DNA of 64,000 nt from an uncultured Poribacteria bacterium (GTDB taxonomy: Bacteria > Poribacteria > WGA-4E > WGA-3G): the NCBI GenBank assembly GCA_951813565.1, contig OX638351.1, forward strand, positions 2,784,001 through 2,848,000, read 5' to 3'. Both the position numbers and the translations under genes were made by a program. Below, in pieces: positions 37,934-53,995 of this stretch (position 1 is its first letter; every line of letters begins with the position of its first letter). The notes beneath the pieces are model-generated. The model was not told the DNA's origin, searched no databases, and worked only from the letters and a program-made list of their open reading frames with translations.

Positions 37934-38060
37934 AGGTACCCACTACCTAAAGGTAGGGGCTTGTGCTTCCTTGCGACTGCGGTTTTCTCAGAGAGTTGAC
38001 CGTCTTATTGTCGCTCCACTTTAGGCAGCCAAGCCTGCCTGTTTGATATTGATAGCAGCA
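37929..38060 (-). ncRNA. Putative TnpB omega/reRNA scaffold at the element right end
   Basis: Position 3' of tnpB including the right-end hairpin; boundaries inferred from family knowledge. Confidence 0.5.
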
Positions 38061-39133
38061 TTGATGTCTCTGTCGTGGTGTGAACCACATTCGGGACATG
38101 TCCACTGTCTATCTGCGAGAGAGAGTTCTTTGTTATGGTATCCACAATCACTACAAGGTTTTGTTGTTGCTATCCATTGAGAGATTTGCACAAGTTTTTT
38201 GCCGTGCTTCGCACACTTCTGTTCCAATATCTGAAGAAACTGGTAGAAAGAATGGTCAGAAACTTTACGTCCCCATAATCGTTTCATACCGTCAAGGTTC
38301 AGCGTTTCCAAAATGAGTGTGTCAAACTCTACACAAAGTTTTGAGGCAAGTTTCCATTGCCAATCTTCTCTTTGTCGGGCAACTTTTCTGTGTTGCCTTG
38401 CTAAAGCACGGCACGCACGATAATAGTTGTTAGAACCTTTGACTTTACGACTGAGTGCTTTGTTGAGAGATCGCAACGTGTTGAGTGATTGTTTGAAAAA
38501 CTGCGGAGATTGTCCCTTGTTGCCTTCGTCGCTTGTGAGGAACGTTTTGTTTCCGTAATCAAATCCTGCGCTCTTACCCGTCTTGGGTTTGGGTTCGGAA
38601 TCCTCAACATTCTCGCACGAAAAGCATATCCAATAGTCACCGCACCTGTCACGTTTGATCGTGATCGTCTTGATGACACCTTTGATTTCACGGTGTTTGT
38701 GAAAGGAAAACCATGTATCTATACAGTTGATTTTGATACGGTTATCTTCAAGTTTGTAGCCCGCTTGTGTGAAGGTCATGGAGTTGTATTTGTGTCTCGG
38801 TTTGATTTTCGGTCTACCCACTTTACGCGTTGTTTTGCCCGCTTTTCGGTCTTCGATATTCTCAAAGAAAGCGTCTTGAGATTTACCATAACGTAGGACA
38901 ACGTCTTGAACAACTTGACTCGGCAAGTCCGCCCAGTGTGGTTTAGTTGTTTTTTTGAGTTTCGCAACATGTGCCTTCAGACGATACGCAGACAAATTTT
39001 TGCCGAACATGCGATAATACCTACGTGCCAAACGCATGATATGTAGATGGATTTCCCACATATCATCAAGCATATTGCCGAGTTTGATTGTGTTAGATTG
39101 GTGTTGAAGTTTGAACTTGTGAGATTTTCTCAT
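38021..39133 (-). CDS. tnpB: RNA-guided endonuclease TnpB
   Basis: RuvC-I GFDYG, RuvC-II LETL, zinc finger CSDCG...CPECG, RuvC-III RDINAAINI. Confidence 0.93.
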   Translation of the reverse strand: MRKSHKFKLQHQSNTIKLGNMLDDMWEIHLHIMRLARRYYRMFGKNLSAYRLKAHVAKLKKTTKPHWADLPSQVVQDVVLRYGKSQDAFFENIEDRKAGKTTRKVGRPKIKPRHKYNSMTFTQAGYKLEDNRIKINCIDTWFSFHKHREIKGVIKTITIKRDRCGDYWICFSCENVEDSEPKPKTGKSAGFDYGNKTFLTSDEGNKGQSPQFFKQSLNTLRSLNKALSRKVKGSNNYYRACRALARQHRKVARQREDWQWKLASKLCVEFDTLILETLNLDGMKRLWGRKVSDHSFYQFLQILEQKCAKHGKKLVQISQWIATTKPCSDCGYHNKELSLADRQWTCPECGSHHDRDINAAINIKQAGLAA

Positions 39134-39230: not shown

Positions 39231-40320
39231 CAGGACTTACGCAGTCTTGAAGATTATTGAAGGATTTGAGAGTTGATGTCGTAAATAATCGTCCAATAAG
39301 CTATCTTTAAGCTCATAAATTGTTCTACCAACTGCACGGGCAGTGCGTGTCAAACAGACCCATACTTGAAAACAACACGCAATATGATTTCTTTGCGCAC
39401 GCAACTTGCGACATTGACATTTACCAATACCAGTGACTTGTTTGATCTCACGATGAAATTGCTCAATCTTCCAACGCACTTTACATTCTTGGATTGTGGC
39501 ATCCGCATCTGATTGAGATAAATCGTTTGTAGCGATATATACCTTGTGTCCGTTAGAGGACGCTATCCGGAACAACTTCACTTGATGTCCATTTGGAAAC
39601 TTATTGATGTGCACGCGTTTTCCTTGTCGTATTTCTGTTTGGGTCCAACATAAATCTTGGACTTGTTGGTGTTGTTCAACACCATCCGTATCATTGACAA
39701 GACGATTACGCTTGAGAGGCACATAGTAAATCTTGGAAAGTTTTTCAATCGCTTTGATGACTTTCATTGACGCATACCAAGCATCCATGAGCACAGTCCG
39801 AAACGGGAGTTGTTTTTTCAAGTAGACATTGTGCAACATTTCCAGTAAATGGTCTATTTTGGTTTTACCATCATGATCTTTGTCAAAAATACGATAATCA
39901 ATGATCCAATATTCTTGCGTCTTTGGATTGACATAAAGACACGTGACAATACCGATGCCTACAACGACTTTTTTGTCGCTACCACTCCATTGAGAACGAA
40001 GGGCTTCAATCTCTTTGGCATGGAGTTTAGGAAGCACAAAATCATCAAAAACTATGTATCCTTCATCATCATACTCAATGTCATCCTTTACGGATTGCCA
40101 GAGTTCGCTTGAAGAAATGTTTTCATTTCTCAAGAAACGATTGAGTTGATCGTGGCTCCATTTTTCTGTCTGAGCAGCAAAGTAGGTTTGTGTCCAATTC
40201 GTGAAACTTGCTATCAAAAACTGACAATAATCGGAAAATAGGTTTTCCTTCTTTTGAGAGTGGGAAAATGTAATCATAATAGAATAGTATACACCATTTT
40301 ATAAAAATGCGTAAGTCCTG
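39231..40320 (-). mobile_element. IS701-like insertion sequence, 1090 bp
   Basis: 13-bp TIR CAGGACTTACGCA/TGCGTAAGTCCTG; 7-bp TSD AGTATAT at 39224-39230 and 40321-40327. Confidence 0.88.
39237..40277 (-). CDS. DDE transposase (IS701-like)
   Basis: IVFDD, IDYRIF..DGKTK, VLMDAWYA, RWKIEQFHREIKQ. Confidence 0.9.
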   Translation of the reverse strand: MITFSHSQKKENLFSDYCQFLIASFTNWTQTYFAAQTEKWSHDQLNRFLRNENISSSELWQSVKDDIEYDDEGYIVFDDFVLPKLHAKEIEALRSQWSGSDKKVVVGIGIVTCLYVNPKTQEYWIIDYRIFDKDHDGKTKIDHLLEMLHNVYLKKQLPFRTVLMDAWYASMKVIKAIEKLSKIYYVPLKRNRLVNDTDGVEQHQQVQDLCWTQTEIRQGKRVHINKFPNGHQVKLFRIASSNGHKVYIATNDLSQSDADATIQECKVRWKIEQFHREIKQVTGIGKCQCRKLRAQRNHIACCFQVWVCLTRTARAVGRTIYELKDSLLDDYLRHQLSNPSIIFKTA

Positions 40321-43523: not shown

Positions 43524-43669
43524 ATTTTTTATTGCAAGTTTCGGGAACTTGATTCTCCTTACTTTATGACTATGAAATTACAAACCACATCGCGTAACAT
43601 GCTTATTTCAGTAAAATTTAGATAATTCCACTATTGCATAAACTATATTTCTCAGAAAAAGTTACAAAA

Positions 43670-43724
43670 ATTACAACACTTCTATATTCAAGTCACTATT
43701 TCTTGAATATAGAAGTGTTGTAAT
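43670..43724. terminator. Perfect 23-bp inverted repeat downstream of the dehydrogenase gene
   Basis: ATTACAACACTTCTATATTCAAG-tcactattt-CTTGAATATAGAAGTGTTGTAAT. Confidence 0.55.
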
Positions 43725-43738
43725 ATATGGCTTCTATT

Positions 43739-44755
43739 TTAGGGATGTAACGCTGTTTTAACACCGCGTTGCGCGATAGCGTTATCAAAAGCTTCTAAAC
43801 CTTGTGAAATGGAAAACTGATCGGTTAGCAAAGGTTTGAAATTGATTGCTTCTTGTAGTAGGAGCTGGCGGGATTCTTGAAGGCTTGCTCGGGAAAATGC
43901 CCACGAAGCCATCAGTTTGTGTCCGGTATAGTGAAATTCTTCTAAGTTTATGCGAAGTTCCTCACCTTCCGGCGCAAGACCGAAAAAGTTGATACAACCG
44001 CCTTTGCGTATAACCTGAAAAGCGAGGTTAATCACTGACGTTTTATTTGTCGTAGCGGAGATGACGGTATCAACACCGCCGTGGGTGATTTCATGGAGAT
44101 GTGCAACATTGTCAGGAGAAATATCAAAAGCGGCATCGGCCCCGACAGTTTCTGCGACAGATCTGCGGTAGGGTAGAGGGTCCAGAACGTAGGTTGCTAA
44201 ACCTGCTCGTTTCGTCAATTGGGTGAACATCAACCCGATGGGACCAGCACCGAGGATGGCAACAGTGTTTTGGAAAATGGTTTCTTGCATCGCATTTAGG
44301 CAGCAGCCTAACGGTTCAAGGAAAAGTAGTTCTTCTGGTGGGATGGTGTCTGGCACTCGGATGAGTTTGCCCGTGTCTATGCCGTGTTTCGGCATCCGCA
44401 TGTATTCGGCGTAGCCGCCATCAATGTCGTGTCCGATACCTTCAATCGTATCGCAGTATTTGTCTTTGTCATTTCGGCAATGCACACAACTCCCGCACGA
44501 AAGCATCGGATTTACGGTGACCCGTTCGCCGACTTTTACTTCCGGATGCCGACTCTCAACGATTACACCTGCGAGTTCATGTCCCATCACAACAGGTGGT
44601 GAATAGTCTGATATATCGCCACGGAGCGCAGCAAGGTCAGATGCGCAGATACCGCACAACTCCATCTTGATAAGCACATCCCCGGCATTGAGTGTGGGAA
44701 TTGGTTTGTCTTGTATGCGTAACTGCTGAACTTTTTCAAAAACGATTGCTTTCAT
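43739..44755 (-). CDS. Zinc-dependent (MDR) alcohol/sugar dehydrogenase
   Basis: CGICASD, GHELAG, CGSCVHC...C, GAGPIG; start MKAIVF at ATG44755, 7 nt after the iscB stop. Confidence 0.92.
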   Translation of the reverse strand: MKAIVFEKVQQLRIQDKPIPTLNAGDVLIKMELCGICASDLAALRGDISDYSPPVVMGHELAGVIVESRHPEVKVGERVTVNPMLSCGSCVHCRNDKDKYCDTIEGIGHDIDGGYAEYMRMPKHGIDTGKLIRVPDTIPPEELLFLEPLGCCLNAMQETIFQNTVAILGAGPIGLMFTQLTKRAGLATYVLDPLPYRRSVAETVGADAAFDISPDNVAHLHEITHGGVDTVISATTNKTSVINLAFQVIRKGGCINFFGLAPEGEELRINLEEFHYTGHKLMASWAFSRASLQESRQLLLQEAINFKPLLTDQFSISQGLEAFDNAIAQRGVKTALHP

Positions 44756-44762
44756 ATACGTT

Positions 44763-46319
44763 CTACGCAACCAATGGGCAGTTTACGATGCTATAACTAT
44801 ATCCATCGCGCTTTTGAATTCTTCGGATTTCGGTAATATTTCCAGATTTTCTCGAATCTTTCTCTTCAGGTGCAAAGTATTCTACGCGAAGTTTACGAGG
44901 TTTGCCTACTGCGGTTTTATCAAAACAGTTGATTATCCCTTTCCATTTCCGATCTCGCTTTGTTATCTCAACGTAGTCAAACTTCGCAAAGCCATTTACA
45001 TGCGAAACCTTAGTTGATGGTTTGATGAAACCGGGTGCTTTCATGTCAAATATCTTGCCTACATTGTCGCGTCTACCATATCCTTTAGCTTCAATGATAG
45101 CAACTTGCAGCGACTTAGCTCGTTTCGGAACAATCGCAACAGACGCAGCATCATAATAATGCGTTTTCGGCAATCTGGCAAGATTCCGATGATGTGCTGT
45201 TTTTCCACCAGTGCCACTTATTATTGGGAGCCCTGTTGTTTTGAGTGTCTCAAACAGTTTCCACCGAATAGTGTTGATTGCTGCAGCATCAGAAAGACCC
45301 TTTTCAGATTTTCGGGCTGCTGCTTGGACCTTCTTTGCAAAATCAGTACCAAGCTTTTCTTCCAACTCGGCTCCGTGCAGTTTACCTTTCTTTTCGTTGC
45401 AGTCTTTACATGCCATCGTCAAGTTGCTCGGACGGTTATCTTCACGAACGGCTTTAGGTGCGATGTGTTCTACTTCTAAATGACGTTTGCCTTTTCCACA
45501 ATAAGCGCATTTTCTGCCAGTCAGTTCTAAAAGATATTCGCGTATCTCACGTCCCCATAAAGTTCCTTGTTGATATTCAATGCCATGTATACCAGGATTT
45601 TCCATCAACTGCATATCAAATTTCACCGTCTCAATTGCCAATTGTGTAATCGGGTAAATCTTACATAACCGTCGGGTCCAGGTCTCTAAATTGAAAACAC
45701 GGGACATCAAACTCGGTGCCACCCAACCATTATCGGCGACCCGTTGATGCACAACGCGAATGCGTCGCCAGCGTTTCTTTTGACGCTTGTTCGTTTTGGT
45801 GTCAGGTAAACGCTCCCAACGATACCGCTCGTCTAAAAACATCGCTTTTGACACGCGATTCAAGTCATTTTGAGATTTACTGGAATCCATTCCCTCTGGC
45901 ACTGAAGCACGTTCATATCTCCATCCGTTTTCTGTAAGAATTGGCACTTGACGTTTCCGATTTGCCCACCGAGCAGGACGATACCGTAGATTACGAGTTC
46001 TACGTCCTCTACGAAAGCCCGAACGTTTTTGAAGATTTCTTTTGATTTGCTGCCCACGGTGATGTAATTCCGCAGCATAGACTATATCCCCAGATTCAGA
46101 CACAATGGCGATTCCACTGATGCGTGATCCCGGGTCCCAACTCAACGTATACGGTTTTGTGACAATTTCCGATTCTGGAACTGCTTTCTTAAGAATAATC
46201 GTAAACGGGTATTTTCGCCATATTGCTGCTTCACCGCGTTTCAGTAGACGACGTGCTACAGCAGGATGACAAGGTTCTAAAGGGTTTTTGTCTGTATCAA
46301 TAACTGCTACTTTTGACAT
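44763..46319 (-). CDS. iscB: CRISPR-associated IscB (OMEGA RNA-guided RuvC+HNH nuclease) with REC-position insertion
   Basis: PLMP-like N-terminus (NPLEPCHPAVARRLLK...PFTI), RuvC-I WDPG (D62), bridge helix RRGRRTRNLRYR, RuvC-II IETVKFD (E230), CAYC...EH(285)I...NL..AC..CN HNH, RuvC-III THYYDA. Confidence 0.93.
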   Translation of the reverse strand: MSKVAVIDTDKNPLEPCHPAVARRLLKRGEAAIWRKYPFTIILKKAVPESEIVTKPYTLSWDPGSRISGIAIVSESGDIVYAAELHHRGQQIKRNLQKRSGFRRGRRTRNLRYRPARWANRKRQVPILTENGWRYERASVPEGMDSSKSQNDLNRVSKAMFLDERYRWERLPDTKTNKRQKKRWRRIRVVHQRVADNGWVAPSLMSRVFNLETWTRRLCKIYPITQLAIETVKFDMQLMENPGIHGIEYQQGTLWGREIREYLLELTGRKCAYCGKGKRHLEVEHIAPKAVREDNRPSNLTMACKDCNEKKGKLHGAELEEKLGTDFAKKVQAAARKSEKGLSDAAAINTIRWKLFETLKTTGLPIISGTGGKTAHHRNLARLPKTHYYDAASVAIVPKRAKSLQVAIIEAKGYGRRDNVGKIFDMKAPGFIKPSTKVSHVNGFAKFDYVEITKRDRKWKGIINCFDKTAVGKPRKLRVEYFAPEEKDSRKSGNITEIRRIQKRDGYSYSIVNCPLVA

Positions 46320-46329
46320 TTTTTATCCG

Positions 46330-46580
46330 TGGATGTTGAGATACCCGAAAGCACCTCAACATCCAAAGCTCGCCTTGCGGCGGTAATGTGAGCCTCGTCA
46401 ATGTTATTTCTGCTTTATAACAGGGTTGACAGCGTATTGTAAAGCTGTTTACATTGCCCCGACAGCGCTCCCGGCTGGCTCATGTACCTGGAGGTGTCTA
46501 TATCAGAAATAACGGATTTAATGTTTCCAACCCATAAAGGCTTGACTAGATACCACTTGGGCATGTTTTTTGTTGCAATT
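46330..46580 (-). ncRNA. omegaRNA/HEARO-like scaffold with a 5' tracrRNA-like anti-repeat
   Basis: Minus strand has anti-repeat TTGCAACAAAAAACATGCCCAAGTGGTATC, then HEARO-like motifs (CCGTTATTTCTG...GACACC...TAAACAG...CAGAAATAACATTGACGAGG...CATTACCGCCGCAAGGCG) and a terminal UUCG-capped hairpin. Confidence 0.82.
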
Positions 46581-46673
46581 TTTGCCGTCAACCTCCCAGC
46601 AAAAATGCAAGATTGGAGGTCGACTGCAAACTCTTAAGACTGACGCTTGACGCAGCTTGACTTTAAGTATAGG

Positions 46674-48445
46674 GTTGCAACTCAAACATGCCCAAGCGAT
46701 AACTGCTATCTTCAGCAAGTATCTGACCTTCCTTTTGGGCAAGTTGCAACTCAAACATGCCCAAGCGATAACCTTCAAACGTGTGCGAAAGGCGTTCAGC
46801 ATCTTTTTCGTTGCAACTCAAACATGCCCAAGCGATAACTCTGGTCTGCTGCTTCGTTTATAATGTCCTCAATAGCGTTGCAACTCAAACATGCCCAAGC
46901 GATAACTTATTTAAACGCATATCAAAAATGATAGCACTAAAAGTTGCAACTCAAACATGCCCAAGCGATAACTTGTTCAGCGGATATATCATCACTGGAT
47001 TTGACGCGTTGCAACTCAAACATGCCCAAGCGATAACACTATTCTATGAGACATTTGAGATAAAGCAAAAATTGTTGCAACTCAAACATGCCCAAGCGAT
47101 AACGTTTACCCCTCCGTTTTGCCTCACCAGTGACATCTACCGGTTGCAACTCAAACATGCCCAAGCGATAACTATGTGATGCCGCAATCTCCCAAGATGT
47201 TGGACTTAAGTTGCAACTCAAACATGCCCAAGCGATAACTTTCGATCCTGAAATACCATATGCTTGGGAGCGTGAGTTGCAACTCAAACATGCCCAAGCG
47301 ATAACGCGCGGACCGGCTTTGGTGCGTTCCGCTAATCCGTGATGTTGCAACTCAAACATGCCCAAGCGATAACTTCGGCACATACAACCCTGTAGCACCA
47401 CCTGTCTCGCGTTGCAACTCAAACATGCCCAAGCGATAACACAGAAGGCTTAGACGATTACATGAAACTCAAAAGTCGGTTGCAACTCAAACATGCCCAA
47501 GCGATAACCGAGAAGTAACGTGTGTTATCATTTTCATCTTTCCAGTTGCAACTCAAACATGCCCAAGCGATAACATGTAAAACACCCTTGACTGTCTCAG
47601 GCGTAACCAAGTTGCAACTCAAACATGCCCAAGCGATAACGAAGTACCAAGACCACGCTGCGCAAGATTGCCAGCAAAACGTTGCAACTCAAACATGCCC
47701 AAGCGATAACTTCGGCTGGGGTGATGAAGTATATCTTCAAGGAGTTAGTTGCAACTCAAACATGCCCAAGCGATAACATGGGCAATCGCAGTATCATCAA
47801 AACACTTGAGTTTGTTGCAACTCAAACATGCCCAAGCGATAACTCAGCTGTCCTTTTTCGTTTGCGATGTTGATGCCAAGTTGCAACTCAAACATGCCCA
47901 AGCGATAACGAAAATCGGGGATATAGTCGTAGCGCAAACAGAAGCGTTGCAACTCAAACATGCCCAAGCGATAACTGAGATTCTTTCTTGGGCAAATGAT
48001 GATAAAAATTCGGTTGCAACTCAAACATGCCCAAGCGATAACTCTACGGAGTCTGCACCTATAAATTGTGCGTAACGGTTGCAACTCAAACATGCCCAAG
48101 CGATAACAAAGATCGTCACCACAGGATTTAACAGCAAGGTCAAGGTTGCAACTCAAACATGCCCAAGCGATAACGTATTGGATTGCTCACGGGATTGTCC
48201 GATGCAACGCAGGTTGCAACTCAAACATGCCCAAGCGATAACCACCTCTGCTTTCACTGTAATTATTTTCTGTTTGGTGCGTTGCAACTCAAACATGCCC
48301 AAGCGATAACTCAAAACTTCGTTTAGCGACTTCTTTACTTCAACGCTATGTTGCAACTCAAACATGCCCAAGCGATAACCTATGAAAGCCATCGTTTTGA
48401 AAAAATCCATCAAGTTGCAACGCCAGCACGCTTAAGTGATATAAC
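46674..48445 (-). CRISPR. CRISPR array: 26 identical 30-bp repeats + 1 degenerate repeat, 26 spacers of 34-40 bp
   Basis: Repeat (+) GTTGCAACTCAAACATGCCCAAGCGATAAC from 46674 to 48379; degenerate copy GTTGCAACGCCAGCACGCTTAAGTGATATAAC at 48414-48445; minus orientation inferred from G-U pairing with the anti-repeat. Confidence 0.98.
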
Positions 48446-52436: not shown

Positions 52437-52484
52437 TTCCTTTTGTTATTTTAGTTTTATAGTTGTAGAGGGATTATTGAATAA

Positions 52485-53892
52485 CGCAATAAGTAGTTTT
52501 GGACTTTCAAAAAGCCCTTAAGCGTTATGGAAATTTATACTTAATAGGGTATGAGAATTCGGAAAAGCACTAAACGGCGAAGACTAATTTCTAACTCTAA
52601 TCTGCGAGAACTTCTGCCCCTCCACCTCACATCGGTATAAAAGTTGAGCGCGCTTGATAGATACTTTGCAACGGCAGACAATTCTTCTAATCGTTTTGCC
52701 GTTGTGATATGAGTGTGGTCCAGCTTGTCAAGACCTTATTCTCTAAGTTCTTCTGCCATCGTTGAGTGAGTCTTCATCTCATACTCTCATTGACAAACTT
52801 ATCAAAAATGCTCTCAATGTTCCTATAGTTGTATTTATAGCACGCCTCTGCGACATATAGGGGCGTGTATTCAGTCCAATAGTGGTGATGACTTCCATAC
52901 CAAGCACGTTTGAGAAGTGACCAGAAGCCTTCAATCGTATTGGTATGGACATCACCGTCAACAAATTGTTCTTGATGATCAATGATATGGTGCTTCATCT
53001 CTTTACCGAGTGTGAGATAAGCCTTATACTCATCAGTCATCAACTGCGATTTATCTACTTTAACAACTTCGCGAATAAAATTTAAGATAGTCCGTCCCGT
53101 CAAATCTTTTGCGAGTCTTGCCACAACTTTCCCACCGCGTTCAATCGCTCCGATGATAGCATCTTTATCAGTGCCACGCCCACGCTTAGCAGGATCCCTG
53201 TCCTCTTTTTTGTTCGCTTTGCGAGGTTTACCCCCGACATAAGTTTCGTCAGCCTCTATGATACCTTGTAAGAGGATATTATCTTTAGCCATTTCAGCAC
53301 GGATGCATGTTCCCATACGCCACGCAGTCTTTTGATTCAAGTCCAAATCTCTTGCCAACTGATGACTTGAAAGACTCTTTTTAGCATTCGTCATCAACGA
53401 GATAGCCAAAAACCACTTCTGAAGTGCTATCTTTGTCCCGTGAAACACCGTGCCACAAGTAACCTTGAAAGTAGCAGTGCAATCGTGGCATTGCCAGCGC
53501 CCGATGCGTCCCAATTCCGTTTCTGTTCGTCTTGCAACGTTTGGGCAATCACAATGTGGACACTTCGGTTTACCCTTCCACCGAATACTCTCTAAATGTT
53601 CAATACAACTCTCTTGATCAGGGAATCGTTCCATCACTTTCAACAAATCCATCAGAAAACTCCTTTTTAGGAGTTGCTTTTTCTGACAGGTTTCTGATAC
53701 AATAATTAGATAAGACAGAATGCCAGAAAAGCAACTCGCTTTTTTGTGTTCAATTAGGGGGTTAGCAGCCCTCTAATTTCTTATCTAAATTGTATCATAT
53801 TTTCACAATTAAAACAAGCGAAAAATGTAGTCTACACAAGGATTTAGAGCGATTTTTAAAATTTTGTTGAAAGTCCAAAACTACTTATTGCG
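52485..53892 (-). mobile_element. IS1595-family insertion sequence, 1408 bp
   Basis: Perfect 26-bp TIR CGCAATAAGTAGTTTTGGACTTTCAA; 8-bp TSD TTGAATAA at 52477-52484 and 53893-53900. Confidence 0.92.
52774..53652 (-). CDS. IS1595-family transposase
   Basis: N-terminal zinc ribbon CPHC...CHDC, EADETYVGG, TDEY, HTNTIEGFWSLLKR. Confidence 0.93.
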   Translation of the reverse strand: MDLLKVMERFPDQESCIEHLESIRWKGKPKCPHCDCPNVARRTETELGRIGRWQCHDCTATFKVTCGTVFHGTKIALQKWFLAISLMTNAKKSLSSHQLARDLDLNQKTAWRMGTCIRAEMAKDNILLQGIIEADETYVGGKPRKANKKEDRDPAKRGRGTDKDAIIGAIERGGKVVARLAKDLTGRTILNFIREVVKVDKSQLMTDEYKAYLTLGKEMKHHIIDHQEQFVDGDVHTNTIEGFWSLLKRAWYGSHHHYWTEYTPLYVAEACYKYNYRNIESIFDKFVNESMR

Positions 53893-53995
53893 TTGAATAA
53901 TGTTACTGCAAAGAGCGTACAGACCCCTCAAACTGTTTCTCATTGCGATGATTATAGCTCTAAAATTAAGAGCGTTTTGCTATATTCCAATATCG

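Follow-up and report, generated by a model that had tools for sequence, protein, structure and literature searches.

The IscB nuclease encoded in the window, the 64,000-nucleotide stretch of DNA that was analysed, carries a 77-residue insert between its bridge helix and RuvC-II, at the site where Cas9 holds its REC lobe, and sequence comparison together with structure prediction indicates a lineage-specific module that would be convergent with this lobe and not ancestral to it. The insert was confined to a single IscB clade and extends a hairpin already present in short-linker sisters by a core under purifying selection. Its history differs from that of the flanking domains, and it appears to have been traded between relatives like a cassette.

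A CRISPR-associated IscB locus

The iscB gene (44763..46319, minus strand) codes for a protein of 518 aa comprising PLMP, RuvC-I, bridge helix, insert, RuvC-II, HNH, RuvC-III and a C-terminal region. This ORF scored 356.6 bits against NCBIfam NF040563 (cut-off 175) and matched the Pfam families RRXRR, in two stretches, and HNH; a structure model of the protein returned IscBs as its top fold matches. Residues D62, E230, H285, H387 and D390 were conserved among 119 aligned proteins, and the PLMP domain was present, with PLEP at positions 13-16. Judged by its PLMP domain, split RuvC with bridge helix, HNH and upstream omegaRNA, the protein is an IscB, whose nearest named relative is a Ca. Poribacteria protein with 73% identity. 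RNA-guided DNA cleavage is predicted by analogy with relatives that have a reported TAM.

On the minus strand the order was array, omegaRNA and then iscB, which puts both the array and the RNA upstream of the gene. The HEARO-like omegaRNA scaffold (46383..46624, minus strand) matched Rfam RF02033 over model positions 1-211 with E 9e-10 and 56 bits, short of the gathering score (83), and was conserved across 13 aligned loci. The CRISPR array (46674..48379, minus strand) consisted of 26 identical 30-nt repeats with spacers of 35-40 nt and had a degenerate repeat beyond it, near 48414. An anti-repeat, recognised by its inverted match to the array repeats, lay in the 5′ region of the omegaRNA (46548..46580, minus strand), and the repeat:anti-repeat pairing formed a long stem in the predicted fold (z −5.06). 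No adaptation genes adjoined iscB, and the two cas1 matches of the genome were more than 1 Mb away, beside two other arrays. Its array, the anti-repeat linked to the omegaRNA and the lack of neighbouring adaptation genes make the locus, on sequence, that of a CRISPR-associated IscB.

A search of the array spacers against their own genome gave just four short matches of 16-20 nt. The outermost spacer (48380-48413) resembled the start of the gene 3′ of iscB (44732-44770) through a 25-nt inverted match at 88%, and might possibly act as a homing guide. The iscB stop overlapped the annotated start region of this next gene downstream, and a near-perfect inverted repeat of 28 nt with a 9-nt loop was found just past the gene, at 43665-43729. 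Near the locus the window also contains putative mobile elements, assigned to families by their motifs: a TnpB-like ORF (38021-39133), an IS701-like transposase (39237-40277) and an IS1595-like transposase at 52483-53894, between 31-nt inverted repeats.

Size, parts and authenticity of the insert

The initial annotation had placed a basic insertion of about 70 residues at 45732-45950, and this segment does translate, on the minus strand, to residues 124-196 of the 518-aa ORF; the full linker between RWANR (117-121) and WVAPSL (199-204) measures 77 aa. The accompanying claim that canonical IscBs have a short FNNR-LTP spacing was borne out by 74 of 90 parsed loci with 5-6 aa, from a survey of 108 loci that were picked by likeness to the window protein and are not a random IscB sample; 15 of the 18 unparsed loci looked canonical by eye. 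The net gain was 72 aa over canonical IscBs and 54 aa over the 23-aa sister forms. Because contigs from four of four runs (two studies, one run being maybe the source sample) cross the insert with no listed difference inside it, the insert is not an assembly artefact.

The features in and around the insert all lie on the minus strand. The Arg-rich bridge-helix region (residues 88-116; 45972..46058), defined by sequence and by a model helix at 89-103, is followed by the FNNR-type motif RWANR (residues 117-121; 45957..45971), the left anchor of the insert, whose R117 and R121 were invariant in the 119 aligned proteins. The linker begins with an older beta-hairpin (residues 122-137; 45909..45956) that contains the invariant W133 and is common to the 23-38-aa sister linkers. 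An acidic variable loop of low conservation (residues 138-150; 45870..45908; pLDDT below 50 at 140-146) leads to the conserved core (residues 151-171; 45807..45869), a predicted short helix and strand delimited by pLDDT of 78-79, conservation and pN/pS. The hairpin tip (residues 172-182; 45774..45806), with a model helix at 175-179, is where the 68-150-aa linkers mainly differ and appears to be a secondary-insertion site in relatives. The return strand R-W-x-R and a basic tail (residues 183-198; 45726..45773), drawn from conservation and the model strand at 184-188, close the insert before the LTP-type motif WVAPSL (residues 199-204; 45708..45725), the right anchor and start of the RuvC-II helix, with W199, P202 and S203 invariant.

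The description of the insert as basic fits its second half only (residues 153-198, with 15 K/R versus 5 D/E), whereas residues 138-152 are acidic; K/R content was 26% in the whole linker versus 19.5% in the remainder of the protein. The NGW triplets that had been pointed out near both ends turned out to be a coincidence: their codons differ, and N131 was kept in only 27% of the 67 long inserts. The first NGW is the turn of the hairpin shared with the short sisters, and the second is simply the G-W that the LTP motif normally contains. A target-site duplication was rejected as the source of the two triplets, given the differing codons and the first motif being the old hairpin turn.

A conserved core within a nested series

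Among 120 listed homologues, parsing gave 67 whose linkers span 68-150 aa; in 39 of them the linker was exactly 77 aa long, and the remaining homologues mostly had linkers of 23 or 31 aa. All clade linkers, short and long, shared the same start, a hairpin of the form R-x-x-P-x-L-x-x-x-x-W-x-Y. The long forms added a core, N-x-x-x-RVS-x-A-x-x-x-D-x-RY-x-W-x-R, and the return strand R-W-x-R, separated by a tip that ranged from a few residues (P0058) up to dozens. R123, W133, N151, D163, R165, Y166, W184 and R186 were invariant in 67 of 67 long inserts, and R183 was kept in 99% of them. In ten pairs drawn from five 77-aa genes, core pN was 0.06-0.21 versus a mostly saturated pS of 0.41-1.0, and because pN is far below pS these codons place the insert core under purifying selection.

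An AlphaFold2 model of the window IscB, built on 119 sequences, showed strands at 124-129 and 132-137 (pLDDT about 60) followed by a disordered acidic loop, and then a helix at 158-161, strands at 166-170 and 184-188 and a helix at 175-179 (pLDDT 78-86). The insert is thus predicted to be mostly beta, consisting of two beta-hairpins and a short helix, the second hairpin having a tolerant tip. Confidence was low past residue 103, at the end of the bridge helix, and at both insert ends (pLDDT 44-61), so the model does not fix the orientation of the insert. An isolated 134-aa form gave the same predicted fold with two additional long tip helices at low confidence. Unrelated tip modules were found on one shared core (L111-L115, P0066, P0073, P0080): two-helix tips in 131-134-aa forms, Tyr/Lys-rich tips in 130-150-aa forms and short basic tips in 97-105-aa forms, none of which matches Pfam. 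Across the aligned linkers the build-up is nested, from 5-6 to 23-38, 68-77 and 88-150 aa.

Distribution and ancestry of the insert clade

A profile of the insert only, made from seven loci, retrieved five proteins from 1.84 billion representatives: four were IscBs of this clade, whole or fragmentary, and the fifth was an artefact of tandem repeats. The initial annotation had reckoned with the segment proving common in non-CRISPR IscBs; it was not found outside the clade. The insert is confined to this one IscB clade, which is probably poribacterial. A word-index search with the insert as query yielded 6 of 20 candidates, all already known. Since the clade was matched in 23 of 176 genomes of the phylum and in 0 of the 39 other genomes of the window's genus, its patchy distribution suggests a mobile module. 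Two genomes had multiple copies (L116-L118 in G145; L127-L128 in G151), with differing repeat variants and differing linkers, one contig bearing both a 77-aa and a 35-aa form.

In a quick, midpoint-rooted tree of 51 rows that left out the linker and held no Cas9 or TbaIscB rows, 23 of 23 sampled members with 23-150-aa linkers formed one branch (SH-aLRT 98) among canonical IscBs. A larger tree (187 rows and 340 columns; six rows skipped, one duplicate omitted) had the 35- and 31-aa forms branching first, followed by the 23-aa forms and then the long forms. In the linker-free tree, L126 (G061) fell outside the clade, on a long branch. This IscB comes from the same phylum and has three short repeats upstream, and its REC-site insert, 53 aa long, Cys-rich and zinc-finger-like, is unrelated.

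Searches for a source of the insert gave no Pfam match over the cut-off in three isolated inserts or inside the insert of five full proteins, and a best ESM Atlas score of 0.87, below the 0.9 line. A fold search with the low-confidence 134-aa model (pLDDT 57.6) returned generic helical hairpins with Z of at most 5.6. The best PDB match of the insert profile was ribosomal bL28 (E 0.52, 45 gapless columns). This protein was rejected as a donor: profile-profile comparison of the 67 inserts with 20 bL28s of the same phylum gave 1% probability over four columns, and 9 of 100 shuffles scored equally high. No Cas9-sized member was found among 69 candidates above 907 aa in a weak search, and the profile search detected no clade member above 590 aa.

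CRISPR linkage and insert length

All nine long-insert loci for which upstream DNA exists, among them that of the window, had an array of 4-28 repeats upstream, and a tenth, L129, ends at the gene; arrays of three or more repeats were seen in 0 of 54 canonical loci having at least 800 nt upstream. The clade repeat was also present in six of eight short-linker sisters, in three as arrays of at least three repeats and in three as one or two copies, and was absent from L120 and L130. Because these short-linker sisters already bear the clade repeat, CRISPR linkage is dated by sequence comparison before the long core; the linkage counts cover kin and represent one or a few events, not independent ones. 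The omegaRNA 5′ region of L120 and L130 contained other short tandem repeats instead of the clade CRISPR repeat, and L120 had an additional array of 37-nt repeats 745 nt upstream.

Spacers measured 34-41 nt in nearly all arrays regardless of linker length, and the idea that longer spacers go with longer inserts was dropped for want of a trend. Replacement of RNA by protein was likewise discarded, omegaRNA length showing no trend with insert size: the RNA 5′ part spans 156-193 nt among 77-aa forms, and 134-aa forms have window-like RNA. Because both lengths are trendless, the genomes give no sign of a longer guide or of protein-for-RNA replacement.

Apparent exchange of insert alleles between relatives

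Linker class was scattered across the flank tree. P0001 was 79-94% identical to the 133-aa forms P0006, P0007 and P0008 in each non-insert region and 38-61% identical in the shared insert parts, and its insert core was 78-88% identical to that of 77-aa proteins whose flanks are more distant. In the quartet P0001,P0006 / P0026,P0024, flank sites divided 38:0 for the flank pairing and insert sites 0:11, the pairing switching between residues 115-141 and 194-231. Two further quartets gave 64:3 in the flanks with 1:9 in the insert and 44:0 with 0:10, and a fourth, comparing 23-aa with long forms on less reliably aligned columns, gave 24:2 with 0:10. All quartets were selected after tree inspection, and the swapped alleles are metagenomic proteins. 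In AU tests on 25 long forms selected from the 67, the flank and insert partitions each rejected the other's tree (p 1.6e-76 and 5.6e-7).

The alignments show that the insert has a history different from that of its flanks and suggest that relatives trade it as a cassette. Homologous recombination would exchange the alleles, with putative crossovers inside the two conserved anchors, bridge-helix/FNNR on one side and RuvC-II on the other. Two genomes (G145, G151) hold two or three clade copies and so offer the opportunity for exchange. Chimeric assembly of metagenomic alleles may produce such a pattern, but the pattern was seen on several separate contigs. No alternative insert alleles co-occurred in the contigs of the four public runs, and among the public runs listed as containing the sequence none was of RNA. 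The HNH and C-terminal regions also look shuffled. In P0024, P0031 and P0073 the HNH and C-terminal TAM-binding regions look exchanged, and the C-terminal region of P0024 is 83% identical to that of the window protein versus 54-63% for P0024's own sisters.

Proposed function and alternative explanations

By a modest preference, and arguing from position, residue type and published grafts, we read the core as a backbone-binding module beside the bridge helix that would steady the mid-to-distal duplex and the adjacent scaffold, aiding R-loop stability and proof-reading and not being required for cutting. The face of invariant Arg, Trp and Tyr residues would bind the phosphate backbone next to the bridge helix, the likeliest partners being the mid-to-TAM-distal guide:target heteroduplex and the neighbouring central stem of the omegaRNA. 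Such binding would stabilise and proof-read the R-loop, and cutting would remain possible without the module. At the level of the clade the long insert is dispensable for cutting, since a member with a 23-aa linker has an NGG TAM like that of a member with a 132-aa linker. Contact with the repeat:anti-repeat duplex, which the initial annotation had offered as one possible role, is disfavoured, since the short sisters share this duplex and RNA architecture does not track insert type. Its other suggestion, that the insert could touch a longer heteroduplex, is plausible.

A rather less probable reading is that the insert mainly binds or stabilises the RNA scaffold, through the central stem, the nexus pseudoknot or the repeat:anti-repeat duplex, and not the distal heteroduplex. 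The invariant R, W and Y residues would suit RNA stacking and repeat-containing RNA accompanies all nine long-insert loci with upstream DNA, but the short sisters run the same repeat:anti-repeat design without the core, and the RNA 5′ part varies from 156 to 193 nt among 77-aa forms while 134-aa forms remain window-like. Free exchange of the insert would also better suit a partner bound independently of sequence, and the OgeuIscB counterpart of the repeat:anti-repeat duplex, its guide adaptor hairpin, is bound by the BH and WED (PMC9640706). An explanation that we consider unlikely sees the insert as a surface driven to vary by phage inhibitors or protein partners, with the core as a pedestal and the tip variable. 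It would accommodate the several unrelated tip types, helical and beta-rich, the exchange of alleles, and 133-aa inserts that are 50-75% identical in shared parts versus 78-92% for their flanks. Against it, no inhibitor is known, the core is under purifying selection, Lys/Arg-rich tips suit nucleic acid, and the shuffling of HNH and C-terminal regions too indicates that recombination is general in the clade.

Neutral accretion at a tolerant loop is very improbable. Short forms are active, unrelated inserts occur at the same site in other IscBs, and the acidic loop and tip vary freely, as accretion would predict; what speaks against it are the residues invariant over 67 sequences, a core pN far below pS and the confident predicted fold of residues 151-190, although this constraint may be for folding alone. 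The least probable of these readings, and one largely refuted, treats the insert as a genuine homologue of the Cas9 REC lobe on the line from IscB to Cas9, either an early stage of this lobe or what is left of it. The shared site, the CRISPR linkage and a size overlapping the small type II-D Cas9 RECs of the published graft list are what it would explain. However, the RECs of TbaIscB, CzcbIscB and II-D open with a Cys-pair zinc finger, whereas the inserts here have no Cys (61 of 67) or one (6 of 67); alignments with TbaIscB, YnpsCas9 and the Cas9d profile skip the insert; the zinc-finger-insert IscB L126 lies outside the clade on its long branch; and the weak search of proteins above 907 aa gave no match.

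Significance

Beyond the backbone-binding proposal, the clade could represent a second, ongoing trajectory from IscB towards a Cas9-like nuclease, a broader view that we put forward tentatively and regard as possible but not probable. After capturing a CRISPR repeat, the clade would have built its own non-Cas9 recognition module as a series of 23-150 residues, with alleles recombined at the anchors used for REC grafting and longer alleles reading a longer guide:target duplex. If true, nature would have supplied a matched series whose flanks are about 90% identical, in which the reasons for the gain of a REC lobe by RNA-guided nucleases could be tested; in the case of Cas9 these have so far been argued from distant snapshots and artificial grafts. 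The series includes near-isogenic natural pairs with inserts of 77 versus 133 aa and flanks 85-94% identical, and a second type of pair, 23 versus 143 aa, that is 94-98% identical from RuvC-II to RuvC-III, on the C-terminal side. Such pairs would allow direct measurement of how guide length and mismatch tolerance respond to a module at the REC site. IscB editors could also draw on the inserts as compact modules without a zinc finger, and the tested members of this scaffold use NGG. This kind of insert is itself known. In the literature we found no account of the family's fold, of its stepwise growth once CRISPR had been captured or of alleles being exchanged in nature, and other IscB papers may discuss the clade.

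Comparison with Cas9 REC lobes and known IscB systems

REC-like inserts of IscB have already been published, and this family is in the published graft list. The definition used there (Kannan et al. 2025; PMC13180657), a stretch longer than 20 aa that separates the bridge helix from RuvC-II and has FNNR and LTP flanks, fits the window insert by its sequence, with 77 aa between RWANR and WVAPSL. The initial annotation was therefore right about an insertion at the REC site of Cas9: the FNNR/LTP flanks are as in PMC13180657, and family members stand in its REC list. Two inserts of this family, of 77 and 132 aa, stand in the REC graft list of that study together with sister linkers of 23, 35 and 38 aa, and its main text does not name these family proteins (PMC13180657). 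The study predicted contact of REC-like inserts with the TAM-distal duplex and found that, of 55 active grafts, 43 cut less when the target had distal mismatches (PMC13180657). An NGG TAM is reported for PbaIscB-3 (132-aa linker) and PbaIscB-4 (23-aa linker), and the ortholog table gives no TAM for PbaIscB-4 protein with RNA minus the repeat (PMC13180657). PbaIscB-3 and PbaIscB-4 were tried in human cells and are absent from the indel tables of the source, and none of the ten grafts listed in its human-cell sheet ED4E comes from this insert family (PMC13180657).

The further suggestion of a nascent REC lobe, if taken to mean a precursor of that of Cas9, was not supported: the insert has no Cys, zinc finger or triple-helix bundle, and the clade lies among canonical IscBs. 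Across the long inserts, 61 of 67 had no Cys and 6 of 67 had one, the window insert having none. Its predicted structure comprises four strands and two helices of 4-5 residues, and no triple-helical REC bundle. Comparisons with TbaIscB, YnpsCas9 and the Cas9d profile left the insert unaligned. The RECs of TbaIscB, CzcbIscB and type II-D Cas9 occupy the same site and likewise grew by nested additions, but they consist of a Cys-based zinc finger followed by a helical bundle, and the window insert is without either. Because both zinc finger and helical bundle were looked for and neither was found, the insert is placed outside the Cas9 REC family; its likeness to a small REC is one of position, and perhaps of function. 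The window IscB also retains PLMP and the omegaRNA core, and given the PLMP loss reported for Cas9 (PMC13622844) it is not a type II-D Cas9 on this criterion.

Among other IscBs, the REC linker of OgeuIscB/OrufIscB is likewise a small beta-hairpin by the bridge helix, contacting RNA and duplex, but the OgeuIscB hairpin precedes the FNNR motif whereas the window insert follows it, and the two have no sequence match (PMC9640706). In the window protein the bridge helix leads directly into RWANR, and a hairpin of the OgeuIscB type between them is absent. A review describes IscB as having joined CRISPR several separate times (PMC10734277). DelIscB (CasIscB), which cuts with a 16-nt guide, resembles the window locus in its array, its anti-repeat in the omegaRNA and the absence of an adjacent cas1, but differs in its 19-aa linker without the hairpin-core module and in its NAC TAM (PMC12660989). 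PbaIscB-3 shares with the window protein its core motif, the FNNR-LTP insertion site and an RNA that contains the CRISPR repeat (PMC13180657).
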